Assembly (NCBI GenBank): GCA_963717145.1
Contig: OY970325.1
Location: forward strand, 1,088,001 to 1,152,000
Direction of reading: 5' to 3'
Source: an uncultured Armatimonadetes bacterium
GTDB taxonomy: Bacteria > Armatimonadota > UBA5829 > DTJY01
Length of the DNA: 64,000 bases
Position numbers and translations under genes: made by a program. Positions 39,671-63,709 of this stretch are shown here, in pieces (position 1 is the first letter of the stretch; every line of letters begins with the position of its first letter). The notes below the pieces were generated by a model. That model saw nothing but the letters and a program-made list of their open reading frames with translations. It had not been told where the DNA came from and made no database searches.

Positions 39671-42600
39671 ATGCTCAAGGTAAGACAGGTTGTCTGTACC
39701 GCGATGTTGTTACTCCTGCTGGTTGCATCGGCAGGTTATGCCCAGGAGTTCCGATCCATCGAGATTACGGCATGGGGGTCGGGCTTCGAGAGCGCATCAG
39801 CGTGCACAGCGCTGGTCAACTACGCAGATTCCTGCAATCTCAACTGCATCATCCCTGAACTCAGGCTCAGATGCGACGCGTACTACAATTCCAACTTCGA
39901 ACCCCCCGGCACAGGTGTCGCCCCGTCACCCGCGGGTTTTGACTCTCTGGCCGATCTCATAACCAAGGCCCACGCCGCTGGTATCGAAGTCCACCCCTGG
40001 GTCGTGACTTTCCGCGTCTGGACGACAGTCGACGGACCCGCGCACATGTCTCCGGAGCACATCTGGTATACGCATGGTCCCGGGCAGAGCGATCCGGACG
40101 AGGACTGGCTCATGTACAGCGACACGGGCGCTTGGAGCTACGGCGGCGTGTCCAACCTCGATCCGGGCGTCCCGGCGGTTGAGGACTACCTCATCAGCGT
40201 GTTCATGGATATGGTGAACAACTACGATGTGGACGGCCTCAACCTGGACTACATCCGGTATCCTCAGACGAGTTGGGGCTATAACCCCAAGGCCGTCGCC
40301 AGATTCAACGCCGAGTATGGGTTGAGCGGCAACCCTTCGTCCAGCAATACCACATGGCAGAACTGGCGCAGAGATCAGATCTCCAATCTGGTGAAGCGGC
40401 TGTATCTCGAGATCAAGGCCGTCAAGCCTTGGGTCAAGCTGAGCGCCGACGTATGGAACTCGGCAACCACGGGGAACAACAGCTACTTCCAGAACTGGGA
40501 TCACTGGATGGCGAACCACTGGCTGGACTTCGCGCATCCGATGTCCTACACGTCCACCAACTCCACCTTCAGTGGCTGGTGCGATGCTTATGTAAACAAC
40601 GCGCACGGACGGCACGTATATCCGCTGGTCGATGCCTCAAACAGCATCACCGGGAATGTGCTTCCGCAGATCGACTCCGTGCGAACGCATGACTTCGCCG
40701 GCACCGGGCTCTATGCGTACAGCTCGATCCCGAACAAGTCGGCGCTCCAGAGCGCATTGGTCAGCGGCCCATTCCCGACGGCTGTCGGGATGCCTGACAT
40801 GCCCTGGCTCAGCACCCCCACCCTCGGGATGCTGAAAGGGTATGTTAAGACCGGCGCCGGTGTAGCCATCTATCCTGCGACCGTCACCATCCAGAGCAGG
40901 AACACAAAGAACACCGGCACGGGTTTCTATGGGTTCGTCGACCTGACGACCGGTACATACACCGTTACGGCCAGTGCGCCGGGATACGTCAACGTCAATG
41001 GCCAGGTGACTATCACCGCGGGCCAGGTCGCTACTCTCAACCTGACAATGGGCTCAGACACGACTCCGCCGACGATATCGAACGTGCGGACGGCCAATGT
41101 TCAGGCGACGAATGCCCAGGTCCTCTGGGACACGAATGAGGGCGCGACGAGCCAGGTCGAGTACGGCTTGACCACCGGCTATGGAAACCAGACGACCGAG
41201 AACATGGCGCTCGTTACCGCGCATACCGTCCAACTCGTCAATCTGACGGGGAACACGCTCTATCACTATCGAGTGAAGAGCAGGGACGGCGCGGGCAACC
41301 TGAGGACCTCGAGCGACTACACGTTCACAACCGCGCCAGGTGATACCGTTGCCGATATCATCATCGACAACACATCCGCCACGCTTGTCGGCAGTTGGAC
41401 CACGGGCACATCCGCCACCGACAAGTACGGCACGAACTACTACTACTGCACCACCGCCGCAAGCGAGACCAAGTCGGCACGGTGGACGCCGAACATCATC
41501 ACCGCCGGCAACTACGACGTCTACGTCTGGTATCCCGCGGGATCGAACCGTACCGCCATGGCGCCGTACACCGTGTACTGGAACGGCGGCTCGCAGACCT
41601 ACACCGTCAACCAGAAGGTCAGCGGCGGCGTATGGAACCTCATCGCCGAGACCAAGCCGTTTGCGATCGGCACGGGCGGCTCCGTGAAGCTGGGTAACGG
41701 CACAGGTGAATCGGCGCTGAACGTCATGGCTGACGCCGTCAAGTTCGTCTATCCGCAGGCGGCCGATACCGAAGATCCGACGGTCCCGACGAACCTGAAT
41801 GCCGTCGCGATCTCAGGCACGCAGGTCGATCTCACGTGGACCGCGTCAACCGACAACATAGGGGTCACGGGCTACAAGATCTACCGCGACAGCGTGGAGA
41901 TCGACACGAGCACGACTCCGTCGTATTCCGATACCACCTGCACGTCGATGACGACATACAGCTATCGCGTATCGGCCTACGATGCTGCGAGTAATGAGTC
42001 CGGCCTGAGCACCGCGGACGTCGTGACGACGCCCGACTCAGCGCCGCCTACCGTGCCGACGAATCTCTCGGCAACAGCGATCTCTCAGACTCAGATCAAC
42101 CTGAGCTGGACCGCTTCCACCGATAACGTCGGTGTGACGGGCTACAACGTCTACAGAGACGGCGATTACCTGACCACCGTCGCAGGCGCGAGCTGCTCGG
42201 ACACGAACTGCGTGGCGAATACTCTCTACACCTACCAGGTGACGGCATTCGACGCGGCGGGCAATGAGTCCGGGCTGAGCACGCAGGCGTCGGCTACCAC
42301 GCTGGCCAGCACGGACATAGTGATGGACAACCCGGCCGCCGTGTTTGTCGGAAGCTGGATCGTCGGCACGACGTCCAGCGACAAGTACGGCGCGGACTAT
42401 GAGTTCGCCACGACCGCGGCCACCGAGACGGCGACCGCGACATGGACTCCGAATATCGGTGTCTCCGGGTACTACGTGGTCTACTGCTGGTATCCGCAGG
42501 GTGCGAACCGCTCCTCCGCTGCTCCCTATACCGTGAACTGGAACGGCGGATCGCAGACGGTCAACGTGAACCAGACCACAGGCGGCGGAACGTGGAACAC

Positions 42601-43684
42601 GCTGCTCACCAACAAGCGGTTCCTTTCCGGCACCGGCGGCAGCGTCAAGCTCGGGAACGGCACCGGCGAGGCATCGCTCGTAGTGTTGGCCGATGCGGTG
42701 AGGTTCCTGATGGTGTCGGACGATCTGACTGCTCCCACCGTGCCGACGAACCTGTCGGCGACCGCGGTCTCGACGAGCCAGATCAACCTGACCTGGACCG
42801 CCTCGACTGATAACGTGGCTGTCACCGGCTACCGGATCTTCCGGAACGATGTCGAAGTCGGAACGAGCGCGACCACTTCGTTCTCCGATCCCGGACTGAC
42901 GCAGTACACCACCTACACCTACAAGGTGGCGGCCTATGATGAGATGGGCAACGAGTCGGCCAAGAGTTCGCCGGACTCCGAGACCACCTGGGACGGGCAG
43001 GCGCCGACTGTCCCGACCAATCTCAACGCGACTCCTATCACCAGCACCCGGATAGACCTCACCTGGACCGCCTCGACTGACAATGCAGGCGTGACGGGCT
43101 ACAAGATCTTCCGGAACAGCGGGCAGATCGGGACGTCTCCCACCGCGAGTTACAGCGACACCACATGCTCGCCGAACACAACGTATTCCTACGAAGTGTC
43201 GGCCTATGACGCCAGGGGCAACGAGTCCGCCCACAGTGCGGCTGATGTCGCGACCACGCCTTCCGGCAGCCTGGCGAACATCATCATCGACAACCCGGCC
43301 GCGACGTTCACCGGGACATGGACTACGTCCACCACCGGCACGGATAAGTACGGGACGAACTACAGATGGGCCAGTTCGGCGGTCTCCCAGAGCCGGACCG
43401 CCAAGTGGACGCCGACCATCGCAACTGCCGGAGGGTATGACCTCTACGCATGGTGGTCCGTCGGTTCGAACAGGGCGACGAACTCGCCGTACTTCTGCCA
43501 GTGGAACGGCGGCTCACAGACCGTCAACGTCAACCAGACGATCAACGGCGGCGCGTGGATGAGTCTGCTCACGAACAAGAGCTTCGCGACAGGCACCGCC
43601 GGCTTCATCAGGCTGGGGAACGGCACCGGCTCGACGGGTAAAGTCGTCGTCGCCGACGCCGTGAGGTTCCAACAGGTCAACTAA
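39671..43684 (+). CDS. Secreted GHL10 (DUF187/DigH-like) glycoside hydrolase with FN3 and 3 golvesin-like modules
   Basis: Signal peptide; AHAAGIEVHPW, LDPG.P.V, YDVDGLNLDYIRYP, FQNW..W, PMSY; carboxypeptidase-regulatory-like domain; FN3 LTWTASTDN repeats. Confidence 0.85.
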   Translation: MLKVRQVVCTAMLLLLLVASAGYAQEFRSIEITAWGSGFESASACTALVNYADSCNLNCIIPELRLRCDAYYNSNFEPPGTGVAPSPAGFDSLADLITKAHAAGIEVHPWVVTFRVWTTVDGPAHMSPEHIWYTHGPGQSDPDEDWLMYSDTGAWSYGGVSNLDPGVPAVEDYLISVFMDMVNNYDVDGLNLDYIRYPQTSWGYNPKAVARFNAEYGLSGNPSSSNTTWQNWRRDQISNLVKRLYLEIKAVKPWVKLSADVWNSATTGNNSYFQNWDHWMANHWLDFAHPMSYTSTNSTFSGWCDAYVNNAHGRHVYPLVDASNSITGNVLPQIDSVRTHDFAGTGLYAYSSIPNKSALQSALVSGPFPTAVGMPDMPWLSTPTLGMLKGYVKTGAGVAIYPATVTIQSRNTKNTGTGFYGFVDLTTGTYTVTASAPGYVNVNGQVTITAGQVATLNLTMGSDTTPPTISNVRTANVQATNAQVLWDTNEGATSQVEYGLTTGYGNQTTENMALVTAHTVQLVNLTGNTLYHYRVKSRDGAGNLRTSSDYTFTTAPGDTVADIIIDNTSATLVGSWTTGTSATDKYGTNYYYCTTAASETKSARWTPNIITAGNYDVYVWYPAGSNRTAMAPYTVYWNGGSQTYTVNQKVSGGVWNLIAETKPFAIGTGGSVKLGNGTGESALNVMADAVKFVYPQAADTEDPTVPTNLNAVAISGTQVDLTWTASTDNIGVTGYKIYRDSVEIDTSTTPSYSDTTCTSMTTYSYRVSAYDAASNESGLSTADVVTTPDSAPPTVPTNLSATAISQTQINLSWTASTDNVGVTGYNVYRDGDYLTTVAGASCSDTNCVANTLYTYQVTAFDAAGNESGLSTQASATTLASTDIVMDNPAAVFVGSWIVGTTSSDKYGADYEFATTAATETATATWTPNIGVSGYYVVYCWYPQGANRSSAAPYTVNWNGGSQTVNVNQTTGGGTWNTLLTNKRFLSGTGGSVKLGNGTGEASLVVLADAVRFLMVSDDLTAPTVPTNLSATAVSTSQINLTWTASTDNVAVTGYRIFRNDVEVGTSATTSFSDPGLTQYTTYTYKVAAYDEMGNESAKSSPDSETTWDGQAPTVPTNLNATPITSTRIDLTWTASTDNAGVTGYKIFRNSGQIGTSPTASYSDTTCSPNTTYSYEVSAYDARGNESAHSAADVATTPSGSLANIIIDNPAATFTGTWTTSTTGTDKYGTNYRWASSAVSQSRTAKWTPTIATAGGYDLYAWWSVGSNRATNSPYFCQWNGGSQTVNVNQTINGGAWMSLLTNKSFATGTAGFIRLGNGTGSTGKVVVADAVRFQQVN

Positions 43685-43745
43685 CAGACCGCCGCTTCCC
43701 GATCGTTGGGGATGGAGTTGGACTCCATCCCCAACGATTAGCGCG

Positions 43746-43776
43746 AAGGGCAGGGGGATCACTCTCCCTGCCCTTT
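43746..43776 (+). terminator. Intrinsic terminator (shared family)
   Basis: AAGGGCAGGG...CCCTGCCCTTT. Confidence 0.7.
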
Positions 43777-43823
43777 CTTCCGAGTAAGTGACTGCACCAC
43801 AAGCGGTTGTTTCCGTCACAAAC

Positions 43824-43942
43824 TCCGGAGAACCCCACCCCGGCCTTCGGCCACCCCTCCCCGCAACGGAGAGGGGACGTGGGCGACTCCCCCTCTCCGT
43901 TGCGGGGAGGGGTGGCCGAAGGCCGGGGTGGGGTTCTCCGGA
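43824..43942. repeat. Long palindromic intergenic repeat
   Basis: Perfect 53-bp arms 43824-43876/43890-43942, each with internal hairpins. Confidence 0.85.
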
Positions 43943-44031: not shown

Positions 44032-44688
44032 CTACGCCGCCATATCACCCCGGGCAGCGATCGTCTCCGTACCTGACTGATCGCCGATCTGAGACGCGTC
44101 CGTGCCTCGATACCGCACGAAGTAGGAATAGTCCGTCCCGTCGCCGGTGATCCGGTCGGTGTAGGGCGATGCTTTCTGGAACGCCAGGAGCGAGAACTCG
44201 GTCTCCCCGGCCTTCCTGCGGTAGATGTTGCATCCCGCCGCCCATGCCGGCCTGCTGTTCATCCGCTCATTCGTCGGGTTCGTGCCGAAGTGGATCACCA
44301 CCTTGGCGATCGCGCTCTCCAGGAATATCGCCGGAGTCTCCGGCCCGATGGAATGAGTCGTGGGAGCTGAGCGGACCGGCAGCCCGAGTTCGCCGCGAAT
44401 CTCGTCCGTCATGCCCGGAGCGTGCTGGACGCGCTGAACCAGCGGACGAATAGTGTCCTTCAATGCGCCCTTCTTGTTCTTCTTGTCATTCGACGCCGCG
44501 GTGAACGCGAGCTTCTTGTCGCCATAGCTCGAGTGGGCCGTGTTGAACGCGGTGTAATCGGTCTGCAACGGCACTATGTCCGCCGCATCGAGGCCCAGGT
44601 CCACCAGATGGTCGGTCAGACCCGTGACCAGATTGTAGGTCCAAGATGCGAGTTCCGCATCGTTTGCAGGCACATAATCATTCGCCAT
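44032..44688 (-). CDS. Hypothetical protein (helical N-half, FN3-like C-half)
   Basis: RBS GGGAGG before ATG 44688; C-terminal GCNIYRR...YTD...YSYFVRY pattern. Confidence 0.7.
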   Translation of the reverse strand: MANDYVPANDAELASWTYNLVTGLTDHLVDLGLDAADIVPLQTDYTAFNTAHSSYGDKKLAFTAASNDKKNKKGALKDTIRPLVQRVQHAPGMTDEIRGELGLPVRSAPTTHSIGPETPAIFLESAIAKVVIHFGTNPTNERMNSRPAWAAGCNIYRRKAGETEFSLLAFQKASPYTDRITGDGTDYSYFVRYRGTDASQIGDQSGTETIAARGDMAA

Positions 44689-44774
44689 TTCAGTACCCTC
44701 CCGTAGATGGATTTTTGCTCCCTCAAGCGTCGTCGGCATCGTTGCCCGATGGTTTCCTGCGGTCCGGATCCAGA

Positions 44775-44914
44775 GCTCTGCGCTCGCACAAATGTGCTCT
44801 GCATCCGCACAAATGTGCTCTTCATTCGAACAAATGTGCTCTGCATCCGCACAAATGTGCTCTTCATTCGAACAAATGTGCTCTGCATCCGCACAAATGT
44901 GCTCTTCATTCGCA
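44775..44914. repeat. 21-bp tandem repeat, about 6.7 units, two alternating variants
   Basis: GCTC(TGCATCCGCA|TTCATTCGAA)CAAATGT. Confidence 0.92.
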
Positions 44915-45322
44915 TGAAGATCCATCGGATCCTGGCTGGAGAGCATGTGATGCCGCTGTGGCCTCAGGGGGATGGGATCGAGATCAGAGTGTGGACTTTC
45001 GAAGTAACACCGAGCGGCTGCCCAGAGGAGGGGAATCCGGCATCCGGAATCCGGCAAATCCGCATTCCGCACTCCGCATTCCGCATTGGTCTCCCGGGCT
45101 TGCGGCCCGATGGCCCGATCCGTATCCGCCTTCCGCCGATTGACTGCTCAAGGAACGAGTGATTGCCTTACACCCAGATGATTCCACGCATATTGCGGAG
45201 GTTGATACTGTTTTTTTTACCGGGTGTCGGAAAATCGGCGGTGGAGGTGGGATACTCGCCGCCCGAACCGCCCGTGTTGCGCGGCAGCGGGGAGACCAAT
45301 CGCCGAGAAGGAAAACATGTCC

Positions 45323-45453: not shown

Positions 45454-48400
45454 ATGGCTGACCTGGAAGCATATCTACAAGAGAAGAGCCCAGACCTGCA
45501 CAAGAAGTACATCGAGATAACTGAGGCGTGCAAGAAGCTCTGGGGCAATACCAAGCTCGATTGGTTTACTGACCATACCCCAACCCACTCCGCCAGGTTA
45601 GTGCGATACCTGAACCAGATGCTCGCCCCGATAGAGCAGACCGACCGCTTCCTGACCCCTGATGAGTGCTTCGTTCTGTTATCGAGCTGCTATCTGCACG
45701 ACATCGGTATGCAGGACATGAGGAGGACGGGAAAGACCGAGGAGAAGTTGAGCGATGAGGAGTTCCGTCGCATACGGGATGAGCACGCACAGAGAAGCTT
45801 CGATATGATCAAAGAAGGGACTCTGCGCCCGGACGGTATCAACTCTGTGGATATCAGGTTGGAAGGTCAGGATGCATGGGCCAGGGCAATGGCATGGGTC
45901 AGCAAGGCGCACTCCACACGCTACTACGATGAATCTGTAGAGTACATCACCAGCGATCCACTCATAGTCAGAGGAAATCGGCTGAGAGGTCCATTCCTTT
46001 GCGCTCTGCTCCTATTGGCCGATGAACTTGATCTGACTGACGAACGCGTGGATTTCTCACAGGCAGTTCTGAAAGACTTGTCGCCCGAGACCTTGCTCCA
46101 CTGGTATGTGCATCACTACATTGAACTGGTAGAGATTGTCAACCAGCAGGTCAGTATCACCTACCGCATCCATGAGGAACTAAAGCCGTATGCAGATCTC
46201 CTGAAGGCACATGTTGCAGGTAAGCTGAATGGCCAGTTCCATCGCTGCAGCCCGATCTACCGTGAGGCAGCCGGCATTGGCGGTCTCGAACTTGCGACTG
46301 CGAAGGTGAACATGAGCGAAGGATTCAAGAGACCCATGCCTGCCGAGGTCCTGGAACTGCTCAAGAAGGAGGCCGAGCCGGACGAGAGCGAATCGCCCGA
46401 AGATAATGCGCCCGGTACAGCCATCCGCGTGCGTCCGCCTCAACCCTCCTCCCTGTTCACTGGGCGCGCTGATGAACTGGAAATGCTTGAGGGTCTAGTT
46501 AGCGATCACAGGGTGTCCATGATCACGGGTATCGGCGGAACAGGCAAATCCCAACTCGTAGCCCAGTATGTTGCTGAGCGGACCCACTTCCCATCGGACT
46601 CTGTGTATTGGTTCGATCTCGCATACAAACAGACTGCCGATGATATCGCCATCGCACTCGGCTTCAGCGAGATGCTGAAGAAGGAGAGGATGACGGCACA
46701 GGAAAAGGGCGCCAATCTGGCTGATATCATCGATCGGACCAAGTGCCTGGTGGTGATAGACAACATCCAGGACTGCCAGGATGAAGCCCTTGGTCATACG
46801 ATTCATCAGTCGGTCGACCGCTTGAGTCGGTCTCGCATACTTCTCGTTGGAAAGTCCCGCCCCAAGTTCGTGGTCGTTCTGGAACCAAGACTCGTCATCA
46901 AGCAGATCAACGGACTGAAGGACGACGGCATAGCCTATGCCCGGAAGCTGAGAACCCAGTGGGAGATAGACATCACTGATGCTGAGACGGTGGATATGTG
47001 CCGCGAGGTCGGCAATCATCCTATGGCGATAGAGGTTGCATTCAACGTTCTCCGCTATGAGGAGAAGCCTCGAGACCTCCTGCAGAAGATCGTCGAGTTT
47101 ACCAAGGATAGCGATGATCCAGAAGCTCTTAGCGCTCGCCTGCTTTCCGAACTGCACAGCCATGCTACTAAGCCTCAGCGTGATCTCGCCTACCGACTTT
47201 CCGTGTTCCGCAGGCCTTTCCCCCGGTCAGCAGCCGGATTCGCCGCCGGACGGGAAGATTGGCAAGCAGATTTCAAGGAACTCGTGGACAAATTGATGTT
47301 CAGGAAGGAAGATGACGAGTTCCATATGCATCAGTTGGTCAGGGCGTTCTGTAACGACAAACTCTCAGACACTGCAGGCACCTCTGCTCATGTTGGAGCC
47401 GCTGCCTTCTACAAGTCCCTGCGCGGGAACGGAGCCAACATCGCCTTCGAACACGAGATAGTCCACCACTTGCTACGCGGCGGCAGTCGCGACGAGGCCG
47501 TGGACATCTTGGTTAGTCACGGGAGAGATTTCCTGATCTGGGGGCACACATCTGCATTGCTGGACATGCTTGCCGAGGTAGACAATCGCGGGGGGCTAAC
47601 TGACAGGCTGCTGAACCTCAGAGGTCGACTTTACGAGTCGCTTGCACAATACGACCTGGCAATGGTTGATCTAGATGCCGCGCGTTTATCCCCTGATCCG
47701 GAGTGTCGCGCCGAGGCTCTGTATAGAAAAGGGGCGATCTGGCTTGCGCGATGTGATCTGCAGAAGGCTGAGGGACTGCTGGAGGCCAGTCTCTCCATCG
47801 CGCAGGAGCATCACATCCCTCGGCTGATTGCTTACAACACGGATGCTTTCGGTCGCATGGCTGAAGGTCAGGGCCGTCTTCATGATGCTATGGCTCGGTT
47901 CCAAAGCGCATATGCCATTCTACAGAATGTGCCTCAGAGAGACGAACACGATATTGGCGTAGCCATAAGGAATATTGGAGCTGTATTACATGGCCAAGGA
48001 GACCTGAAACGAGCGATGGAGAAGTACGAGGAGAGCCTCCAGATACGTATCGCTGTCGGCGACCAGTTGGGCATCGGCTCTTGTGTGCACGACATAGGCA
48101 GCATACTTCAAGATCAGGGAAACCTAGATGGCGCAATGGCGAAGTACGAGGAGAGCCTCCAGATACGTATCACTGTCGGCGACCAGTCCGGCATCGCAGG
48201 CTGTACCAGGGCCGTGGGCACTATACTCGAAGCCAAGGCAGACCTAGAAGGCGCGATGGCGAAGTACGAAGAGAGCGTAGCGATATACTCTGCTATCGGC
48301 GAGCAGAGCGGTATCGGAGCCGGTATATGTAGCATAGGTCGTGTACTGCAGAGGCGCGGGGACCTGCAAGGAGCGATGGCTAGGTACGAACAAAGCGTGG

Positions 48401-48912
48401 CGATATATACTGCTATGGGCAACACCTTGAATGTCGCCCGTAGTCTTAACAACATGGCAACTGTCCACGACAAACTGAATGAACCTGGGCTGGCTGCAAA
48501 TCGCTTTGCCGAATCGTGCGGTCTGTACCGAGACGCAGGGGCGTTGGGCGATCTTGCATTCACCCTGCGAAATCTGGCTCGATGTTATGAGAATGCTGGC
48601 GAGCACGAGTACGCTATACGTCCATTCCTTGAAGCTGAGGCTCTCTACCGGCGGCTCGAGCGCGAACGGGAGACTGAAGAAACTGCCAACGAGATATGCC
48701 GGGCAAGACAGAGCATCGGCTTCCAAGAGTTTCGGCGGCTAGCGGAGGCAGCGTACGGCGTGCTCCCTGATGACCTGAAACCGTTCTCACACTACCACGA
48801 GTATATTGCGGACACCACCCTGCGAAAGGAGACAAGGGCTGGTCGAAATGATCCATGTCCGTGCGGCAGCGGGAAGAAGTACAAGAGGTGCTGCTTGGGG
48901 AAAGACGCATAG
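45454..48912 (+). CDS. NLR-like STAND protein: HD phosphohydrolase - NB-ARC-like NTPase - TPR - SEC-C
   Basis: FTDH..TH, YLHDIGM, AHS, LADELD; FTGR, GIGGTGKS, LVVIDN, GNHPMAI, MHQLV; 40-aa TPRs; GRNDPCPCGSGKKYKRCC. Confidence 0.88.
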   Translation: MADLEAYLQEKSPDLHKKYIEITEACKKLWGNTKLDWFTDHTPTHSARLVRYLNQMLAPIEQTDRFLTPDECFVLLSSCYLHDIGMQDMRRTGKTEEKLSDEEFRRIRDEHAQRSFDMIKEGTLRPDGINSVDIRLEGQDAWARAMAWVSKAHSTRYYDESVEYITSDPLIVRGNRLRGPFLCALLLLADELDLTDERVDFSQAVLKDLSPETLLHWYVHHYIELVEIVNQQVSITYRIHEELKPYADLLKAHVAGKLNGQFHRCSPIYREAAGIGGLELATAKVNMSEGFKRPMPAEVLELLKKEAEPDESESPEDNAPGTAIRVRPPQPSSLFTGRADELEMLEGLVSDHRVSMITGIGGTGKSQLVAQYVAERTHFPSDSVYWFDLAYKQTADDIAIALGFSEMLKKERMTAQEKGANLADIIDRTKCLVVIDNIQDCQDEALGHTIHQSVDRLSRSRILLVGKSRPKFVVVLEPRLVIKQINGLKDDGIAYARKLRTQWEIDITDAETVDMCREVGNHPMAIEVAFNVLRYEEKPRDLLQKIVEFTKDSDDPEALSARLLSELHSHATKPQRDLAYRLSVFRRPFPRSAAGFAAGREDWQADFKELVDKLMFRKEDDEFHMHQLVRAFCNDKLSDTAGTSAHVGAAAFYKSLRGNGANIAFEHEIVHHLLRGGSRDEAVDILVSHGRDFLIWGHTSALLDMLAEVDNRGGLTDRLLNLRGRLYESLAQYDLAMVDLDAARLSPDPECRAEALYRKGAIWLARCDLQKAEGLLEASLSIAQEHHIPRLIAYNTDAFGRMAEGQGRLHDAMARFQSAYAILQNVPQRDEHDIGVAIRNIGAVLHGQGDLKRAMEKYEESLQIRIAVGDQLGIGSCVHDIGSILQDQGNLDGAMAKYEESLQIRITVGDQSGIAGCTRAVGTILEAKADLEGAMAKYEESVAIYSAIGEQSGIGAGICSIGRVLQRRGDLQGAMARYEQSVAIYTAMGNTLNVARSLNNMATVHDKLNEPGLAANRFAESCGLYRDAGALGDLAFTLRNLARCYENAGEHEYAIRPFLEAEALYRRLERERETEETANEICRARQSIGFQEFRRLAEAAYGVLPDDLKPFSHYHEYIADTTLRKETRAGRNDPCPCGSGKKYKRCCLGKDA

Positions 48913-51951: not shown

Positions 51952-52058
51952 CGTTTCCTCCGCGGGGTGAGCGCGCCAATTGATGGGACAGTGTTCGGCG
52001 ATGACATGGGTTTCTCCTTGACGTCGTCCAGGCCCAGAGTGTCGATGGTGCACTCCAG

Positions 52059-52136
52059 CGGCTGTCATTCTGAGCGAAGAGAAGAATCCGGCTGCAGCAT
52101 GGGCCGGATTCTTCTCTTCGCTCAGAATGACAGCCG
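52059..52136. repeat. GTCATTCTGAGCG-type palindromic repeat
   Basis: Perfect 34-bp IR 52059-52092/52103-52136. Confidence 0.85.
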
Positions 52137-52175
52137 TTACCTCAATCGTGGGCTGCTTTGCAGAGCAGAATTCGT

Positions 52176-52310
52176 TTGACAAGTCGCCGATTCTGATGTA
52201 ATCTGGTGTCAACGCTCGTAGAGCAGTTCGACGATCGTTTTCTAATCGCATCCCAAGGCCACCAACGGTCCGCTAAGCCTCGAGCGAAGTAAAGTTGGGA
52301 GGGGTGCAAT
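52176..52310 (+). promoter_or_regulatory. Promoter plus conserved structured leader (copy 2)
   Basis: TTGACA-17-TAATCT; GATCGTTTTCT..GCATCC..AAGGCCACCA..TGGGAGGGRTGCAATTGAA shared with 58544-58630. Confidence 0.65.
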
Positions 52311-55500: not shown

Positions 55501-58344
55501 TCGGACACCACTTGCACCATAAACACCACGTACATGTACAAGGTGTCGGCTTATGATGCTATCGGCAACGAGTCCGCAAGGAGCACTGCCGCCGAGGTCA
55601 CGACTCTGGGCAATGACACAGAGGCTCCGACCGTTCCTGCGAACCTCCAGGCGACCGCGGTTTCCGCCACTCAGGTGGATCTGGCATGGGAGGGCTCGAC
55701 GGACAACGTCGGAGTCACCGGTTACAGGATCTTCCGCGACAATGTCGAGATCGCCACAAGCGCCTTGACGACCTATTCCGACACAACCTGCGCCGAGTAT
55801 ACGGCCTACACCTATGAGGTGTCAGCGTACGATGCATCGAGCAACGAGTCGGCAAGGAGCGCGGCTGCCAACGTCACGACACTCGACGTGACGGCTCCCG
55901 GCATCCCGGCCAATCTGGCCGCGACCGCGGTATCCGGCACTCAGGTAGATCTGATCTGGACCGCCTCGACTGACAATGTGGCCGTCACAGGCTACAAGGT
56001 CTTCCGGGACAGCGTTCAGATCGGTACGAGCGCGACGGCTTCGTACTCCGACACGACCTGCTCGCCTGCGACGACCTACACCTACGAGGTCTCGGCCTAC
56101 GACGCAGCCTCGAACGAGTCCGCCAAGAGCGCGCCGGATCAGGCAACCACCCCTGATACTGTCGCTCCGAGCGTTCCGACCAACCTGAATGCAACGGCGG
56201 TCTCGGGCACCCAGGTCGATCTGACCTGGACCGCCTCGACTGACAATGTGGCCGTTACCGGCTACAAGGTCTTCCGCGACAGCGTCCAGATCGGCACGAG
56301 TGCGACTGCTTCGTACTCCGATACGACCTGCTCGCCTGCGACGACCTACACCTATGAGGTATCGGCTTACGACGCAGCGACCAACGAGTTGGCGAAGAGC
56401 GCGCCCGACCAGGCGACGACTCCTGACACGATCGCTCCGACCGTTCCGACGAACCTCGGGACGACTGTGATATCCGGCACTCAGATCGACCTGAGTTGGA
56501 CCGGCTCCACCGATAACGTTGGGGTCACTGGCTACAAGGTCTATCGCAACAGCGTGCAGATAGGAACCAGCGCGACTCCGTCGTACTCGGATACGACCTG
56601 CTCGCCCGCGACTACCTACACCTATGAGGTAGCTGCTTACGACGCAGCCTCGAACGAGTCGGCAAAGAGTGCGCCCGCTCAGGGGACGACTCCCGACACG
56701 ATCGCGCCGAGTGCGCCCACCAACCTGGTGGGAACTCCGATAGCCTCGACTCGGATTGACCTGAGTTGGACTGCATCGAGCGACAACGTGGGAGTGACGG
56801 GATACAAGGTCTTCCGCAACAGCGTGCAAATCGGCACGAGCGGTACGACCAGCTACTCCGATACCACCTGCAGCCCCAACGTAACCTACACCTACGAGGT
56901 GTCGGCCTACGATGCGGCCCAGAACAACTCGGGCCTCAGCAATGCCGTCCAGGTGGCGACGGTGGCCAACACCGACATCATCATGGACAACACGTCGGCA
57001 ACCTACGCAGGCAGTTGGTTCACCGGCACAGCGGCGACCAACAAGTATGGCGCTGACTACCGGTACATCACCACTCAGGCTACTGAGACGGGGACTGCGA
57101 CGTGGACTCCCACAATCGACGTGGCGGGCTACTACAACGTCTACTGTTGGTATCCTCATGGAGGCAATCGGTCCGCGATAGCACCGTACACCATTCAGTG
57201 GGACGGCAGCTCGCAGACCGTTGCGGTCAATCAGCAGATCAACGGCGGCGTATGGGTCGCACTGGTCTCGGCCAAGCGGTTCCAGGCCGGCACAGCCGGT
57301 TACGCCAGAGTGGGCAACGGTACTGGTGAGGTCGCACTAAGCGTGATGGCGGATGCCGTCCGGTTCCTGCTGGTATCGGACGACCTGACTGCTCCGAGCG
57401 TACCGACGGATCTCGCGGCCAACGCCGTTTCGTCGAGTCAGATCGATCTGACCTGGACTGCATCCACCGATAACGTCGGTGTCAGCGGCTACAGGATCTT
57501 CCGTGACAACGTCGAGATAGGAACGAGCGCAACGACCTCCTACTCGAGCACCGGGCTCTCGGGAGGTACTCTCTACACGTACAAGGTGACGGCTTACGAC
57601 GCGATGGGCAATGAATCCGCCCAGAGCGCGCCCGCGAGCGCCACCACCTGGGACGGCATTCCGCCGACGGTTCCGACCGGCGTCGCAGCCTCGGCTGTCG
57701 GTCCCCAGAGGATCAACATCTCCTGGACCGCCTCCACGGATAACGTGGGCGTGACGGGATACAAGGTCTTCAGGAACGGCGGGTATGTTGGTTCCTCGGC
57801 GACCACGAGCTACTCCGACGGCGGCCTCGCACCGAACACGGGATACACCTATACCGTGTCGGCCTACGATGCCGCGACCAATGAGTCCGCTCAAAGCACG
57901 GGCGCGGGTGCGACGACTCCTGGATACCAGGAGACCATCATCGACAACCCGGGCTGCACATGGACCGGCGTGTGGACAACATCGACCTCGGGCACGACAA
58001 AGTACGGTGCGGACTACAAGTACGCCAGTACCGCCGTGAGCGAGGGCAAGACCGCGCGATGGACGCCGACGATTGCCTACGGCGGCAACTACGACATCTA
58101 CGCGTGGTGGACGGCGGGATCCAATAGAGCCACGAACTCCCCGTTCTTCGTGCAATGGAACGGCGGCTCTCAGACTGTCAGCACCAACCAGTCTACCAAC
58201 GGTGGAGCATGGAGAGTGCTGCTGACCGGCAAGAACTTCGCGGCCGGCACTGCCAGCTACCTAAAGCTGGGCAACGGAACAGGCGCTACCGGCAAGGTCG
58301 TTGTTGCCGATGCAGCGCGTTTCGTGCAGGTCAGCGGAGACTGA
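52571..58344 (+). CDS. Giant secreted Amidase_2 (N-acetylmuramoyl-L-alanine amidase) with 10 FN3 and 3 golvesin-like modules; frameshift near 54641
   Basis: Signal peptide; VVIHTIEG, SAHY, AWHVG, IGIENEG, GH, HWDPG; NBR1-Ig-like domain; one added base joins ORFs 52571 and 54625. Confidence 0.85.
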
Positions 58345-58378
58345 TAGCCAACCGCTCGACAGATCGCACGTAACATCG

Positions 58379-58412
58379 AGGGCAGGGAGTGCATGCATTC
58401 CCTGCCCTTTTT
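58379..58412 (+). terminator. Intrinsic terminator (shared family)
   Basis: AGGGCAGGGA...TCCCTGCCCTTTTT. Confidence 0.8.
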
Positions 58413-58485: not shown

Positions 58486-58625
58486 TTGACATGTCGGTGG
58501 CATAGAGTATAATAGGCGGGAAAGGCTCATCGAGCCAACCAGGGATCGTTTTCTGCTGCATCCATCCGAAGGCCACCAGCGATCGTAGGAGCAGGTGGGC
58601 CGACACATCTAATGGGAGGGATGCA
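58486..58625 (+). promoter_or_regulatory. Promoter plus conserved structured leader (copy 3)
   Basis: TTGACA-16-TATAAT; stem GATCGTT/AGCGATC; loop TGCATCC complementary to GGATGCA at the SD/start. Confidence 0.65.
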
Positions 58626-61600
58626 ATTGAAAGCCTCACGTATTACACCCCCGCTTGCACTGCTCATGGCAGTGCTGGGATGCTTCCTGCTTGCAGGCAG
58701 CTCCCCCGCCGGGCCGGTGGCGTACATCGACCCCGTAGATGGCGACATATTCGTTGTCGATCATCCGGATGCCGTTGACGCTGTTTCGGCTCTGGCACTA
58801 CTCTCTTCACCACCGGCCAATATCCCCTTTGTACAGCAGGTGATATCGGCGGTACCGCCCGGCGCTAAGCTCCTCGACTTCGCCATGGAAGGTGACACGG
58901 CCGTGGTCACTTTCTCGAAGAACATGGTGACGGGACCCGTTGGCGAGGGTCAACTGGCCACTGTGTTCGACCAGGTGAGATGGACACTCTGGAACTATGG
59001 TTTCCAGGGCGATGTGAAGATCATGGTCGAAGGCAACCTGCTGTCGGACTACACTGATCCAACACCATTTGTCGGACAGCGTCCGTCTTGGGATCCGGAC
59101 GCTGTCGGGCTCGGCGGGCACAGCATCACGCTCTCGCCGGGACACGGCTCGGTACTGGAACGGCAGCGGATGGCATACCCAGCGTCCGGTGTACTGCTCT
59201 CCCCTGAACCAGGAGGACTTCCACACTCTAGAGATGGCGGCGACCCTCAGGACCTTCCTGTCGCAGGACAGCATGAACGTCAAGATGGCGCGCCAGATCA
59301 GCAAGACCTACGGCACCTACTCCGTCAGCGGCAAGCCGTGGTGGCAGATGGCGGGATGCTACTGGCTGAAGCAGGCCGGCTATCCCTGCAGCGTATACGG
59401 CAGCTCGTCCGGCTGCACTCTGGGCAGCGGCGCTGACGAGCACAGCGATGACATCCGAGCCAGGCCGCTTGCTTCCGACTACGATGCCACCAACATCTAC
59501 GTCTCGCTGCACACCAATGGCTACGGCGGCAACTGCAACGGTACCGGCTGCCCGAGAGGCACCATCACGTACTATGACTGCAGTTCGGAGCACGCATCCT
59601 GGTGCACGGTCAGTCAGAACCTGGCCGGGGACATACAGAATGCGCTGGTCAGTACGATCCGCTCCTACTATGACTCCGGTTGGACCAACCGCGGTACGGG
59701 CAACGGCAACGGCAACTACGGCGAGATCCGCATACCGAACAGAGCCGCCGTTCTCATCGAGTTGGCCTTCCACGATAGCTGCACCACGGACGCCCTCGCT
59801 CTGCGCGACAACTGGTTCCGCAGCGTATCTATGTGGGGCATCTACAAGGGCATTTGCGACTACTTCGGCGATACCCCGACGTGGGGGTTCTACTCCGACG
59901 AACTGGTCAGCAATACCATCCCGAGCACTATGAATACCGGCGAGACCAAGTCGGTCAGCGTCACCTTCCGAAACCGAGGTGTACTCTGGACCAATGCCAG
60001 GGCTTACAAACTCGGCGCGGTCGGTGACAGCGATCCGTTCACCGCTACGACCCGTCAACTGATCTCCGGAGAGGTCGGTCCGAACACGACCTACACGTTC
60101 ACATTTAACCTGACCGCTCCGAGCACGCCGGGCACTTACACCACAGACTGGCGCATGGTTCGTGACGGGTACACATGGTTCGGCGCTACCTGCTCTAAGG
60201 CTATCACGGTGTCAGGCAGCGACCTCCAGGCGCCGACCGTGCCCCAGAACCTGTCGGCAACGGCCGTGTCACCGTCTCAGGTCAACCTGACCTGGAGCGC
60301 TTCGACGGACAATGTCGGGGTCACTGGGTACAAGGTCTTCCGCGACAGCGTGCAGATCGGTACCTCGGCGACGGCCAGCTACTCTGACACCACGGCAACG
60401 GCAGCCACGACCTATAGCTACCAGGTCTCCGCTCATGATGCCGCCGGGAACAACTCCGCACTGAGCACCGCTGCCAACGTGACCACACCGGCGGTCGATG
60501 TGATCGTCGACAATCCGGCCGCCGTCCTTACGGGCGCGTGGTCTACAGGCACTGCATCCACCGACAAGTACGGCGCGGACTACCAGTTCGTAGGTACTGC
60601 TGCGACCGAGACCAAGAGCGCCAAGTGGACGCCCACCCTCACGTCAGGCGGCACATACAACGTGTACTGCTGGTACACTCAGGGAACCAACAGATCGACT
60701 GTTTCCCCGTACACCGTATCCTGGAATGGCGGCTCGCAGGTCGTTAATGTCAACCAGCAGACGAACGGCGGATCGTGGAGGACCTTGGTCTCCAGCAAGC
60801 CGTTTGCCGCGGGAACAGCCGGCTACGTCAGGCTCGGCAATGGCACTGGAGTAACCGGCGATGTCGTTGTCGCCGATGCAGTCCGGTTCGCAACCGTGTC
60901 TATCGACGTCACCGCTCCGACGGCTCCCTCGAACCTGGCCGCGACCGTTATCTCCGAGACGCAGGTGAACCTTACCTGGACCGGCTCGACCGATAACGTC
61001 GCCGTCACCCAGTATCGCATATACCGTGACGGATCTGAGATAGCGACGAGTACGACGACGTCCTACTCCGACACTAGCTGCTTGCCCGGCAACACCTACG
61101 AATACGAGGTGTCCGCGCTCGATGCCGCCGGAAACGAGTCACCGCTCAGCAATCTCGTCACTGCCACCACTGAGGGCGATTCGACGGCGCCAAGCACTCC
61201 GACCAACCTGGCGGCCACCGTGCTGTCGCAGACCGAGATCAGCCTGAGTTGGACCGCCTCGACCGACAACATCGGTGTCGCCGGATACATCATCTACCGG
61301 GATAACGAGGAACTCGCCACTAGCGCGACCACCTCGTTCATAGATACCACCTGCGCTCCGAGTACGACGTACTCGTATCAGGTGTCGGCATACGATGCAC
61401 GGATGAACGAGTCGGTGCTGAGCGAAGCGGTTCAGGCGACGACTCAGAGCAATGACACCGCCGCTCCGACAGTTCCCACGGAACTCGCTGCAACGGCGGT
61501 ATCCGGCACTCAGATCGACCTGACCTGGGTCGCCTCCGTGGACAACGTAGCGGTCACCGGGTACAGGATCTTCCGCGATAACGTGGAGATCGCGACAACC

Positions 61601-63643
61601 GCCGACCTCTCGTATTCGGACACCGGCCGCACCCCGGCGACCTCATACGGCTACAAGGTGTCCGCCTATGACGCGGCAACCAACGAGTCAGCACCGTGTG
61701 ATCCCGTGAGTGCGACGACGTTCGACACGATCGCCCCGACAACACCGAGCGGTCTGTCGGCTACGGCGGTATCCGGCACTCAGATCAACCTGAGTTGGAC
61801 CGGATCGACCGATAACGTAGGCATCTCGGGGTACAAGATCTATCGCAACGGAGTGGAGTTCAGCTCGACCGGCGGCACATCCTTCTCCGACACGACCTGC
61901 GCGCCGGCGACGACCTACACCTATCAGGTCTCGGCCTACGACGACGCTACCAACGAGTCGGGGCTGAGCAATACGGCGGGCGCGACAACGTTCGATACCG
62001 CGCCTCCGACCGCGCCGACCAACCTGGCGGGGACCGCCATCTCGCAGACCCAGATCAACCTGACCTGGACTGCATCGACTGACAACGTCGGAGTGACCGG
62101 CTACAAGGTCTTCCGAGGCGGCGTCCAGATCGGTACCAGCGGGACGACCAGCTACTCCGACACCACATGCAGCTCATACACGAGCTACATGTACGAGGTG
62201 TCCGCCTACGATGCGGCCCAGAACAACTCCGCGCTGAGCAATCAGGCGAACGCGACTACTCTGCCGTACACGGATCTCATCCTGGACAACACGGTGGCGA
62301 CCTTCACGGCAACGTGGTTCACCAGTTCATCAGCCACCGACAAGTACGGCACGAACTATCGGTACATCACCACTCAGCCAACTGAGACGGAGACCGCCAC
62401 CTGGACGCCGGATGTGGACATCGCCGGCTACTACACGGTCTACTGCTGGTATCCGCAGGGATCGAACAGGTCGGGGGCAGCTCCATATACCGTCTACTGG
62501 GACGGCAGTTCGCAGACCGTGGCTGTCAACCAGAAGTCGAACGGCGGCTCATGGAGGACCCTGGTCAGCACCAAGAGGTTCCAGGCCGGAACAGCAGGAT
62601 ACGTCAAGCTCGGCAACGGCACGGGTGAGGTCGATATGAGCGTCATGGCGGATGCGGTCCGGTTCCTCCTCATATCGAGCGACCTGACTGCTCCGACCGT
62701 ACCGACGAACCTCGCAGCAACCGCGACATCAGCCACTCAGATCAGTCTGACGTGGACGGCCTCGACCGACAACGTAGCAGTGACCGGTTACCGGATCTAC
62801 CGCAATGACGTCGAGGTAGGGACGAGCGCAACCGCCTCCTACTCCGACAGCGGGCTGACCCAGTACACCACGTACACCTACAAAGTCGCTGCCTATGATG
62901 CGATGGCAAACCAGTCGGCCCAGAGCAGCCCGGACTCCGAGACCACCTGGGATGGTCAGGCGCCTACGGTTCCGACGGGACTGACAGCCACCGCTGTCGG
63001 ACCGCAGAGGATCAACCTGGCCTGGACCGCTTCCACCGATAACGTGGGAGTCACCGGCTACAAGATCTTCCGTGGCGGCGTAGAGATAGCCACCTCGGCG
63101 ACGAACAGCTACTCGAACGGCGGTCTCGCACCGAGCACCGCCTACACGTTCACCGTTGCGGCATACGACGCTCGCAACAACACGTCGGCACAGAGCACCA
63201 GCGCCGGTGCGACAACGCCCGCCTACCAGACGATCATCATGGACAATGGTGTGGCGACCTGGACCGGCGTGTGGACTACGTCCACCTCAGGTACGGACAA
63301 GTACGGAGCGGACTACAAGTACGCCAGTACGGCCGCGAGTGAGGGCAAGACCGCCAGGTGGACACCGACCATCGTCTACGCAGGCAACTACGACACGTAC
63401 ACCTGGTATTCGAAGGGCACTAACAGGGCGACGAACTCGCCCTTCACCGTCTACTGGAACGGCGGTTCTCAGACCGTCGCCATGAACCAGACCATCAACG
63501 GCGGCTCGTGGAGGACTCTGCTCACAGGCAAGAGCTTCCTCGCGGGCACGGCGGGCTACGTCAAGCTTGGCAATGGTACCGGTGCGACCGGCAAGGTTGT
63601 TGTCGCTGATGCGGTCAGGTACGTGCAGACCAGCGGGAACTAG
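58621..63643 (+). CDS. Giant secreted GerMN + Amidase_3 protein with 8 FN3 and 3 golvesin-like modules; frameshift near 59150
   Basis: Signal peptide; GerMN-like GDTAVVTFS..QVRWTL..VKIMVEG; ITLSPGHG, YVSLHTNG, AVLIELAFHD; removing one base gives GHGWYWNG and joins the two ORFs. Confidence 0.85.
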
Positions 63644-63675
63644 ACTCCGCTGACTGATGATGCACGACGTACAAC

Positions 63676-63709
63676 GAAGGGCAGGGGTTGATCCCCTGCC
63701 CTTCACTTT
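63676..63709 (+). terminator. Intrinsic terminator (shared family)
   Basis: GAAGGGCAGGGG-TTGAT-CCCCTGCCCTTC. Confidence 0.7.

Follow-up and report, generated by a model that had tools for sequence, protein, structure and literature searches.

Three predicted exported proteins of an Armatimonadota bacterium carry unlike murein-hydrolase-type heads on one Golvesin_C/FN3 tail

Why should catalytic domains of unlike families be carried on one long C-terminal tail? The question is raised by three forward-strand genes of the window, the 64,000-nucleotide stretch of contig OY970325.1 analysed here, which a sequence-only reading had taken for a co-regulated, mix-and-match toolkit for wall lysis. The first gene (W1) occupies 39671–43684, or starts at 39638 to give 1348 amino acids, and is a single intact frame. 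The second (W2, 52571–58344) is read in two frames, 52571–54643 and 54640–58344, as is the third (W3, from 58621 or 58612 to 63643), with frames 58621–59148 and 59150–63643. Judged by eye, all three N-termini resemble signal peptides.

The heads are as unlike as had been claimed. W1 contains a GHL10 domain (39806–40585; 124.4 bits, cut-off 27.9) followed by a CarboxypepD_reg-like β-sandwich (40832–41050). W2 has an Amidase_2 domain (53348–53716; 84.1 bits), an NBR1-type Ig-like domain (53852–54130) and a CarboxypepD_reg-like domain (54149–54376). In W3 a Germane (GerMN) domain (58777–59037), of a type with a wider sporulation and envelope context, precedes an Amidase_3 domain (59125–59857), which is split by the frame change directly 3′ of SPGHG, and an NBR1-type Ig domain (60035–60211); all of these are Pfam assignments. 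At the Amidase_3 site where the W3 frame breaks an intact paralogue (L008) reads SPGHGIFWNGSGW. The Amidase_2 fold of W2 matches amidase endolysins (Z 18.3), and the His/His/Cys columns are invariant in the alignment that covers it. The domain N-terminal to it (52700–53191), earlier called an uncharacterised helical domain, is indeed unannotated in Pfam, but structure comparison gives it a lytic-transglycosylase (lysozyme) fold, with matches to MltC (Z 12.4), Slt (12.2), MltF (11.6) and MltE (11.2). It scores 17 bits with the SLT profile, under the cut-off of 21.3, and has GSAFEN at the position of ES in SLT domains; by eye it is apparently a lytic-transglycosylase-like domain without the usual catalytic Glu. 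This domain co-occurs with Amidase_2 in 32 of 32 matches.

The GHL10 head of W1 aligns with E. coli DigH (25% identity over 235 amino acids, E 7e-18) and with Cwp19 of Clostridioides difficile (PDB 5oq2, E 8e-18). A profile search found 35 GHL10 matches in the genome, a number that suggests varied substrates. All 29 matches examined read hD-Y-I-R-Y where DigH and Cwp19 have F-D-D-Y-F-Y, and the second Asp of the D-D motif is absent from every one. Asp196, the catalytic residue proposed in the Cwp19 report (PMC5765458), aligns with a Tyr in these heads; given the hD-Y-I-R-Y motif, the proposed catalytic Asp is not conserved. Because the Asp-Asp motif differs from that of DigH and Cwp19, a DigH-like specificity is something that we infer for the GHL10 heads.

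With HMMs made from the window's own modules, supplemented by Pfam for W1, the common tail FN3-Golv-(FN3)n-Golv-FN3-FN3-Golv was recovered as proposed, with n = 2, 7 and 5 in W1, W2 and W3. The W1 tail (41048–43669) consists of an FN3-like domain (41048–41326), Golvesin_C (41357–41746), two FN3 (41756–42292), Golvesin_C (42317–42706), two FN3 (42713–43249) and the terminal Golvesin_C (43280–43669). In W2 (54374–58323) the corresponding modules lie at 54374–54640, 54661–55050, 55057–56952 (seven FN3), 56977–57366, 57373–57909 and 57934–58323, and in W3 at 60212–60478, 60500–60889, 60896–62251 (five FN3), 62276–62665, 62672–63208 and 63233–63622. The last 455 amino acids are 62–76% identical, and the termini share a common ending, reading VVVADAVRFQQVN, VVVADAARFVQVSGD and VVVADAVRYVQTSGN. 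The count of exactly three Golvesin_C modules holds for each of the trio but is not special to it, as there are paralogues with one, two or four and a database protein with nine. In a tree the tail modules cluster by position, not by gene: the terminal modules of W1, W2, W3 and three paralogues (L017, L014, L002a) form one clade (support 91/93) and the middle modules a separate one (84/87). W2 contains a tandem array with a period of 270 nt (55624–56919), and the number of FN3 units varies through tandem duplication.

Each gene is followed by a terminator-like hairpin. That of W1 (43746–43775) is formed by AGGGCAGGG and CCCTGCCCT and runs into a T-rich stretch; that of W2 (58378–58409) has 14 pairs and is followed by TTTTCATT, and that of W3 (63676–63704) has 12 pairs. 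When the whole 5.37-Mb genome was searched, three of the four copies of AGGGCAGGG...CCCTGCCCT were these, 60–35 nt past the stop codons, which bears out the shared terminator; the fourth lies 3′ of the closest tail paralogue (G000 5192177). On sequence grounds the tail and terminator have descended together, and common descent of a tail cassette accounts for the shared terminator better than co-regulation does. The related 5′ leaders also claimed were not recovered: when the 260 nt before each gene were aligned locally, the scores were no better than those of shuffles, of which 87, 40 and 166 out of 200 reach the observed score. Gene 1 has a σ70-like promoter, by consensus match, at 39507–39535 (TTGACA-17-TATATT, 11/12) and gene 3 one at 58486–58513 (TTGACA-16-TATAAT, 12/12); none was found for gene 2. 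In a relative (G151) the closest homologues are on different contigs. Co-regulation is therefore not supported, given the unrelated leaders, the separate promoters of genes 1 and 3, the separate terminators and this dispersal, and each gene is its own transcription unit.

W2 is interrupted by a 1-nt deletion near 54640–54645, and W3 by a 1-nt insertion near 59149–59153, directly after the GHG motif of Amidase_3. These breaks could be real, in which case W2 and W3 would be recent pseudogenes in a birth-and-death turnover and W1 alone would work; eight of the ~31 genes of the family are frame-split, and the breaks do not fall in long homopolymers. However, similar breaks split two dnaE-like loci and RNA-polymerase subunit genes, which could not be broken in a living cell, as well as TamB and a GFO_IDH_MocA oxidoreductase gene. 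Decay of W2 and W3 is also made improbable by the downstream frames, which run on for 1234 and 1497 codons without a stop and keep every domain intact, and by intact homologues in relatives, among them GerMN–Amidase_3 ORFs. Full-length W1 orthologues occur in two other genomes (76% and 72% identity). As the dnaE-like and RNA-polymerase genes break alike, the frameshifts are probably assembly errors, so that all three genes are probably functional.

The module that defines the tail was compared with known structures. A profile of 38 Golvesin_C modules matches residues 907–1036 of PDB 6f2p, the terminal module of a Paenibacillus xanthan lyase (E 2e-33, 39% identity), and weakly matches CBM35 entries; the nearly invariant residues of the 38 are all present in the 6f2p module too. 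Foldseek with a structure model (pLDDT 95.4) returned 6f2p first (TM 0.88), then CBM6 and CBM35. As modelled, Golvesin_C is a carbohydrate-binding module of CBM6/35-type fold, with the xanthan lyase module as its closest solved relative. A review describes the latter as an unclassified xanthan-binding module (PMC10881899), and golvesin, a xanthan lyase and Bacteroides lectins that bind host glycans have been grouped in one CBM-like domain family (PMC9166713). The nearest characterised relatives thus bind xanthan or host glycans, not peptidoglycan, a point against a wall-glycan ligand. Among 14 control genomes only B. thetaiotaomicron has Golvesin_C matches.

The search for other proteins with the tail extended the pattern well past the trio. 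Across the genome, profiles found 45 Golvesin_C modules in ~31 genes, 22–23 of them with GHL10 (12–13), Amidase_2 (4) or Amidase_3 (7) heads and eight with other heads or none. Many of the enzymes are 1000–2400 amino acids long, with FN3 spacers of up to seven units and up to four binding modules. Amidase_2 and GHL10 are fused in L014 of this genome, in its homologue in G151, an intact ORF of 2388 amino acids, and in P0002. A PEP-CTERM signal is present on one small Golvesin_C protein of the genome. A list of 120 database proteins was made of the matches closest to one Golvesin_C module of this genome and is for that reason biased towards relatives; among those listed, 66 contain a peptidoglycan-hydrolase domain from one of five families (GHL10 39, Amidase_2 14, Amidase_3 6, GH25 6, M23 1), 19 have non-murein enzymes and 35 have no enzyme family. 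The listed non-murein partners are NAGPA, Glyco_hydro_cc, multihaem cytochromes, C10 peptidase, FAD oxidoreductase and β-lactamase-like proteins. Neither count describes a tail placed on functionally random proteins.

The reading that we prefer, with a probability of roughly 0.55, is that W1–W3 belong to a lineage-expanded ~31-gene family of Sec-exported modular murein hydrolases held on wall glycan by Golvesin_C. The proposed toolkit on a common chassis is supported and enlarged, apart from its co-regulation. Each protein would comprise an N-terminal catalytic head, small β-sandwich adaptors, FN3 domains as rigid spacers and one to four Golvesin_C modules, which may anchor the enzyme multivalently to cell-wall glycan. 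Amidase_2 and Amidase_3 heads would strip the stem peptides, the former assisted in W2 by the lytic-transglycosylase-like domain, probably by binding glycan strands and not by cutting them. The bared strands would then be cut by the GHL10 head, as DigH degrades denuded glycans generated by amidases (PMC12288456). Wall material outside the producer, from other bacteria or necromass, seems to us the most likely substrate, given how many and how large the enzymes are and how long their spacers. A search of the genome for a MurNAc-6-P etherase (MurQ) gave no match above cut-off (best 44.6 bits against 302), which weakens a full 'feeding on murein' reading. Trio and family together point to a so far undescribed wall-targeting role for this sugar-binding module.

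One Omp85 and five secretins were found in the genome, and by gene content the producer is probably diderm. In a diderm cell, export by a Sec signal and nothing more would end in the periplasm beside the cell's own wall, where the enzymes could act as autolysins that remodel or split it in growth, division or differentiation. By eye the only export signals are of Sec type, and no sorting tail is recognisable; the Omp85 gene, the lack of a MurQ above cut-off for catabolism, the sporulation and envelope links of GerMN (Pfam description) and the E. coli precedent of AmiA/B/C plus DigH (PMC12288456) agree with such a role. We nevertheless think it doubtful: ~23 enzymes appear far more numerous and larger than known housekeeping sets, the secretins are possible exit routes, and the GH25, M23 and C10-peptidase heads found on the module elsewhere resemble enzymes of attack or digestion.

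The tail may instead be a display anchor that binds surface polysaccharide or slime made by the producer itself, so that the heads share a location and not a substrate. The exopolysaccharide-binding relative, the PEP-CTERM protein, the module's occurrence on multihaem cytochromes, FAD oxidoreductase and peptidases, and the three CWB2 repeats by which Cwp19 binds a wall polymer (PMC5765458) are in keeping with this, and a general surface-anchor role also fits the listed proteins with non-murein enzymes (19 of 120) or no enzyme family (35) and the eight genes here with other heads or none. We regard a mere anchor as unlikely, however. Of the 85 listed proteins with an assigned enzyme family, 66 are murein hydrolases, drawn from five unrelated families; a tag for location alone should turn up on exported enzymes of more varied kinds; and other glycoside hydrolases of the window, the GH42-like and CHB_HEX_C proteins, lack Golvesin_C. 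Least probable is that the GHL10 heads cut another polymer, such as exopolysaccharide, and that the trio has no single substrate: the abundance of GHL10, the missing Asp, the poly-GlcNAc-acting PgaB domain that is Cwp19's closest structural neighbour (PMC5765458) and a Deinococcus GHL10 enzyme reported active on starch (PMC9967864) would allow it, but GHL10 is covalently joined to Amidase_2 in the three fusions and shares one position-matched tail with both amidase families.

Murein-hydrolase-type heads on a Golvesin_C tail have partial counterparts elsewhere. The terminal module of Paenibacillus nanensis PXL is of the same domain family and fold, but sits on a PL8 lyase, whereas here one to four copies are found on murein hydrolases. 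LytA, S. aureus AmiA/Atl and phage amidase endolysins resemble W2 in combining an Amidase_2 fold (6srt, 7f5i, 4knk and 4x36; Z 17–18) with repeated wall-binding modules. In such modular autolysins and endolysins these are choline-binding, SH3b or similar modules; none is known to have Golvesin_C with FN3 arrays or an N-terminal lytic-transglycosylase-like domain. The Bacteroides proteins Cbeg4 and Cbeg5 have a CBM6-CBM35-CBM36_like_2 domain, of the CBM-like family of golvesin and xanthan lyase (PMC9166713), an InterPro entry that would correspond to Pfam Golvesin_C; unlike the enzymes here, they are non-enzymatic lectins acting on host glycans. Cwp19 (PDB 5oq2/5oq3), which cleaves peptidoglycan (PMC5765458; PMC6016235), is like W1 in that its GHL10 head precedes three repeats that bind a wall polymer. 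However, its CWB2 repeats are unrelated to the CBM6/35-fold Golvesin_C and it has no FN3 spacers. In E. coli, where the septal amidases AmiA/B/C remove peptides and DigH (YddW) cuts the denuded glycan (PMC12288456), amidases are likewise combined with a GHL10 enzyme, one homologous to the W1 head. DigH, with F-D-D-Y in place of h-D-Y-I-R-Y, is a 439-amino-acid lipoprotein without FN3 or CBM, whereas the ~23 enzymes here, at 1300–1900 amino acids, share a CBM tail and in some cases fuse Amidase_2 and GHL10 in one chain.

Three giant genes on the forward strand encode the exported predicted peptidoglycan hydrolases W1, W2 and W3, and ORF reading confirms the positions proposed for them from sequence alone. 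W1 is a single open frame (39671, or 39638, to 43684), W2 consists of two overlapping frames (52571–54913 and 54625–58344), and W3 is formed from frames at 58612–59436 and 59069–63643. A signal peptide is seen by eye in each protein. The W3 signal sequence (58621–58720) contains a possible lipobox, VLGC, that by eye is absent from the paralogue L008. Behind the N-terminal head each protein continues with a common tail, FN3–Golv–(FN3)n–Golv–FN3–FN3–Golv, in which Golv is a Golvesin_C module (PF25275) and n is 2, 7 and 5 in W1, W2 and W3, respectively. This arrangement, first described in the sequence-only reading, is recovered with HMMs made from the window's own modules, counting, besides the first FN3-like unit of W1, only FN3 matches with E < 1e-35; weak FN3 matches (E 1e-9 to 1e-19) over the Golvesin_C modules were left out as seed artefacts. 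Pfam gives three Golvesin_C matches per protein (259–285 bits in total) and FN3 stretches of 5 (W1), 1+9 (W2) and 8 (W3). In NCBIfam the only matches are a weak one to AmpD and some below threshold to an exoglucanase model, in its FN3 region. Translation also upholds the similar C-terminal endings reported for the three proteins; the 'VVVADAVRF' ending is the last strand of Golvesin_C, and its invariant Ala-Asp is shared with a Paenibacillus xanthan lyase.

The heads are those originally assigned, with GHL10 in W1, Amidase_2 in W2 and Germane (GerMN) with Amidase_3 in W3. The W1 GHL10 domain (PF02638) reaches 124.4 bits (cut-off 27.9), and a CarboxypepD_reg-like domain is also present. W2 contains an Amidase_2 domain of the T7 lysozyme/AmpD/PGRP type (PF01510; 84.1 bits, cut-off 26) together with an NBR1-type Ig domain and a CarboxypepD_reg-like domain. 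The modelled Amidase_2 fold superimposes on an endolysin-type amidase (pdb 6srt; Z 18.3, r.m.s.d. 2.5 for 144 residues). Across 31 sequences His238 is fully conserved, His339 and Cys347 almost fully (at least 90%); these three residues presumably correspond to the zinc ligands of T7 lysozyme. In W3 the Germane domain is followed by Amidase_3 (PF01520; AmiA/B/C, CwlD type; 35.6 bits against 27 over positions 21–173, also 39.1 bits) and then by the same NBR1-type Ig domain as in W2. By eye, Amidase_3 shows the motifs GHG, E, H(T)N and (L)IE. The domain is not one open frame in the assembly, the frame changing directly after GHG; in two relatives, a single frame of the homologue encodes GerMN together with the whole of Amidase_3.

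The helical domain at the N-terminus of W2, which the sequence-only reading had called uncharacterized, does precede Amidase_2 as described (32 of 32 database matches), but its predicted fold is lysozyme-like, of the lytic transglycosylase type. The match to SLT (PF01464) is below the cut-off (17.0 bits against 21.3, E 0.0044). Residues 17–180 of the model (pLDDT 88.5) align with MltC (pdb 4c5f; Z 12.4, r.m.s.d. 3.0 for 132 residues), Slt (pdb 5o2n; Z 12.2), MltF (Z 11.6) and MltE (Z 11.2), Z values of 11–12 that the tool rates as uncertain where domains are helical. Nearly all structures matched over these residues are lytic transglycosylases, lysozymes, muramidases or chitinases, and a phmmer search of the domain against the PDB had no lytic transglycosylase among the matches listed. 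An invariant Gly-Ser closes the second helix and A-F-E-N comes next; the Glu, three residues past the Ser, is nearly invariant. Placed by eye, we take this Gly-Ser to sit where SLT domains have their catalytic Glu-Ser. We read the domain as a putative strand-binding or altered lytic transglycosylase domain.

On sequence grounds the tail of W1, W2 and W3 is one inherited cassette, the spacer of which changes length through tandem FN3 duplication. In a tree of 41 Golvesin_C modules from the source genome (5.37 Mb) the modules cluster by position and not by gene. The terminal modules of W1, W2, W3 and the paralogues L017, L014 and L002a fall into one clade (support 91/93) and the middle modules into another (84/87), and the first module of W1 clusters with the first modules of other GHL10 proteins. 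The tails are 62–76% identical over the last 455 residues and 67–77% at the DNA level, which therefore indicates old paralogy and not recent conversion. The common terminator noted earlier behind the three genes is also found, as a hairpin (AGGGCAGGG...CCCTGCCCT) with just four copies in the genome. Its fourth copy lies behind L017, the paralogue with the tail closest to that of W1, so the terminator belongs to the duplicated cassette. W2 contains a 270-nt array of 4.8 copies, its FN3 units 4–6 being 77–83% identical. In one relative (G151) the W1 orthologue is shorter by one FN3; in another (G152) it stops after the first Golvesin_C and two FN3 domains.

The 5' leaders had been described as related; over the 260 nt upstream, similarity among the three genes does not exceed that of shuffled sequence, and at the Rfam gathering score the sole match in the whole window is a tRNA (1261–1333), with no match in the leaders. 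W1 and W3 have sigma-70-like promoters of their own (11/12 and 12/12 against the consensus), none is found for W2, and each gene has its own hairpin terminator. The closest homologues in G151 lie on different contigs. Nothing beyond neighbouring positions therefore favours the co-regulation that had been proposed.

Between W1 and W2 a 1152-aa protein (45454–48912, forward strand) with an HD-CE domain, a STAND/AAA NTPase, TPR repeats and a C-terminal SEC-C motif looks from its domains like a signalling or defence-type NTPase. A tandem repeat (44784–44914; 21-nt unit × 6.2, or 42-nt unit × 3.1, 98% match) lies between W1 and this gene, inside a minus-strand ORF without a Pfam match (44032–45072). 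Two further giants lack the Golvesin_C tail: a 1630-aa protein with CHB_HEX_C and SdrD_B-like domains (33985–38877, forward strand) and a 1089-aa GH42-like protein with CBM4_9 (48982–52251, reverse strand). Both are probably exported and glycan-active.

A search of the source genome for other tail-bearing proteins, as the sequence-only reading had proposed, shows that murein hydrolase heads are enriched. There are 45 Golvesin_C matches in about 31 genes, where chance would place such a head on fewer than one (an estimate assuming about 4500 genes). GHL10 alone is found in 11–12 of these genes, Amidase_2 alone in three, both together in one (L014) and Amidase_3 in seven. The remaining eight comprise one Glyco_hydro_cc protein, two pectate-lyase-fold proteins, one Laminin_G protein, and one each of a PQQ propeller, a PEP-CTERM protein, a solo module and an unknown head. 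A second 'toolkit' locus, L004 (1563000–1573500 of the genome), contains a GHL10–Golv gene, a Glyco_hydro_cc gene with two Golv modules, a solo Golv frame of 177 aa and four tandem small Amidase_3–Golv genes (339–357 aa), with a further Amidase_3 match behind, at 1573307. In total the genome has 35 GHL10, 7 Amidase_2 and 17 Amidase_3 matches. E. coli and B. subtilis have one GHL10 each, and 35 in one genome is an unusually large, unexplained expansion. First-look numbers of GHL10 candidates in three genomes of the family, this one included, are 40, 34 and 25, a hint that the expansion is shared; scored candidates, counted up to 13 per genome, give no ranking of the expansions.

The association of module and head extends beyond this genome. 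Golvesin_C occurs in 79 of 151 sampled genomes of the phylum, mostly with 1–5 matches and with 10–45 in the organism's own family and class. The closest full-length homologues of W1 among the matches listed, at 76% and 72%, are from one MAG and from an 'Armatimonadetes bacterium' MAG, and source names among the database matches listed include Armatimonadota, Verrucomicrobiota, Sumerlaeota and Planctomycetota. The best 120 of the 265 database proteins that exceed the module in length, a sample skewed to relatives of the query, including six proteins of the source genome and with family names verified on ten examples, comprise 39 with GHL10, 14 with Amidase_2, 6 each with Amidase_3, GH25 muramidase and NAGPA, 2 with Glyco_hydro_cc, one M23 peptidase, 11 other enzymes and 35 without an enzyme family. 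In other organisms the module also sits on multihaem cytochromes, C10 (streptopain-type) peptidases and an FAD oxidoreductase (P0075, P0094, P0113, P0128, P0116, P0122 and P0117).

The module itself has a predicted carbohydrate-binding fold of the CBM6/CBM35 type. A profile of 38 Golvesin_C modules matches residues 907–1036 of the Paenibacillus xanthan lyase PXL (pdb 6f2p; E 2e-33) and, weakly, CBM35 entries; the model (pLDDT 95.4) superimposes best on the same structure (TM 0.88, 39% identity), with CBM6 and CBM35 structures next. The terminal module of PXL is described as an unclassified xanthan-binding module distinct from the CBM84 module of that enzyme (PMC10881899), and golvesin, a xanthan lyase and Bacteroides lectins have been grouped in one CBM6/35/36-like family (PMC9166713). 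Assignment of Golvesin_C to CBM84 is not supported: the PXL review separates the two modules (PMC10881899), and the CBM84 founder PspXan9 (pdb 6fhj) is absent from the seven PDB matches of the 38-module profile at E up to 1. In the literature on golvesin and CBM84, mostly at the level of titles and abstracts, no paper ties Golvesin_C to the cell wall, and the module is so far tied just to xanthan and host-glycan lectins.

The domain assignments, the inherited tail and the census together make a modular murein hydrolase family with a common glycan-binding tail the best-supported explanation of W1–W3. Murein hydrolases of modular build that carry wall-binding repeats are a well-known type. What the module binds, in which order the enzymes act, where they are located and what they target we infer. 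With a probability of roughly one in three, Golvesin_C is an unrecognized peptidoglycan-glycan-binding family that this Armatimonadota lineage and some Verrucomicrobiota, Sumerlaeota and Planctomycetota use to aim secreted, combinatorial murein hydrolases (GHL10, Amidase_2, Amidase_3, GH25, M23) at the walls of other bacteria. By analogy the module would perhaps prefer peptide-free, carboxylate-bearing strands, echoing the binding of the acidic polymer xanthan by its relative. If the module does direct hydrolases to foreign walls, these little-known soil bacteria would be specialized wall degraders or predators. Binding to peptidoglycan would make it a new wall-targeting CBM, usable as a probe or as the targeting part of a lysin, and would give a function to a Pfam family present in 79 of the 151 sampled phylum genomes. 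The lineage would then be a heavy investor in murein breakdown, with a bearing on necromass turnover in soil.

Alternatively, W1–W3 may be autolysins directed at the producer's own wall. The genome contains one Omp85 gene and five secretin genes, which suggests a diderm cell with possible export routes, and no MurQ etherase (TIGR00274) matches above the cut-off in it. The tail may instead be a display anchor on a polysaccharide of the producer itself; non-murein partners in other organisms suggest a wider surface-tethering use of the module, and murein hydrolases prevail among its partners here. A third alternative is that the GHL10 heads act on another substrate. The W1 domain is homologous to the GHL10 enzymes Cwp19 of Clostridioides difficile (E 8e-18) and DigH of E. 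coli (25% identity, E 7e-18), and in HMMER and BLAST alignments its L-D-Y is paired with their F-D-D, the first Asp being kept and the second replaced by Tyr; this second Asp is missing in all 29 GHL10 matches examined in the genome.

A fourth alternative is that W2 and W3 are true pseudogenes. W2 lacks a base near 54640–54645, between the first FN3 and the first Golvesin_C, and W3 has an extra base near 59149–59153, directly behind the SPGHG motif, where the intact paralogue L008 reads SPGHGIFWNGSGW. The downstream frames are open for 1234 (W2) and 1497 (W3) codons with all modules intact. The only public reads matched are two runs from one soil-metagenome sample (5–6% of words), with no RNA run among the matches listed; they yield contigs of a roughly 90% similar relative, none of them at the frameshift sites. 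A codon-usage heuristic flags 30 same-strand ORF pairs in the genome, W2 included, that resemble one gene in two frames, and 20 loci holding 21 of the remaining pairs were inspected for domains. Consecutive domains of single proteins were found there in different frames, as in a GFO_IDH_MocA oxidoreductase (L049) and TamB (L054); in L051 a phosphofructokinase frame covers the first 195 of 277 profile positions and its partner has no family match. Frame breaks also occur in two dnaE-like genes (L050, 852274–853864 of the genome, and L061, 3641387–3643488) and in RNA polymerase subunit genes (L060, 4269304–4272567), and are read as assembly indels. Since a living cell needs its essential genes intact, the assembly must carry indel errors. 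In both dnaE-like copies the break is close to the finger/HHH_6 boundary, an odd similarity of position. Eight of the ~31 genes of the Golvesin_C family are split, which, the genes being long, fits a uniform error rate. The breaks in W2 and W3 are probably an artefact of assembly.

In a family of murein hydrolases the amidases would, by analogy with E. coli, act first and GHL10 would then cut (PMC12288456). L014 (5013900–5022000 of the genome) combines a lytic-transglycosylase-like domain, Amidase_2, GHL10 and four Golvesin_C modules in one polypeptide, frame-split here; the same type of fusion is intact in G151 (a 2388-aa ORF; locus L042, 1087–8253) and is also found in the metagenome protein P0002. 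Such covalent Amidase_2–GHL10 fusions add genomic support for GHL10 acting downstream of amidases outside E. coli. In Cwp19 the acidic pair Asp195-Asp196 ends strand β4, and Asp196 is the proposed catalytic residue, a conjecture in the source itself (PMC5765458). Cwp19 and DigH share the motif F-D-D-Y-F-Y, whereas W1 and 29/29 of the GHL10 matches examined read h-D-x-[IV]-R-[YF], and the proposed catalytic Asp of Cwp19 therefore aligns with Tyr in W1.
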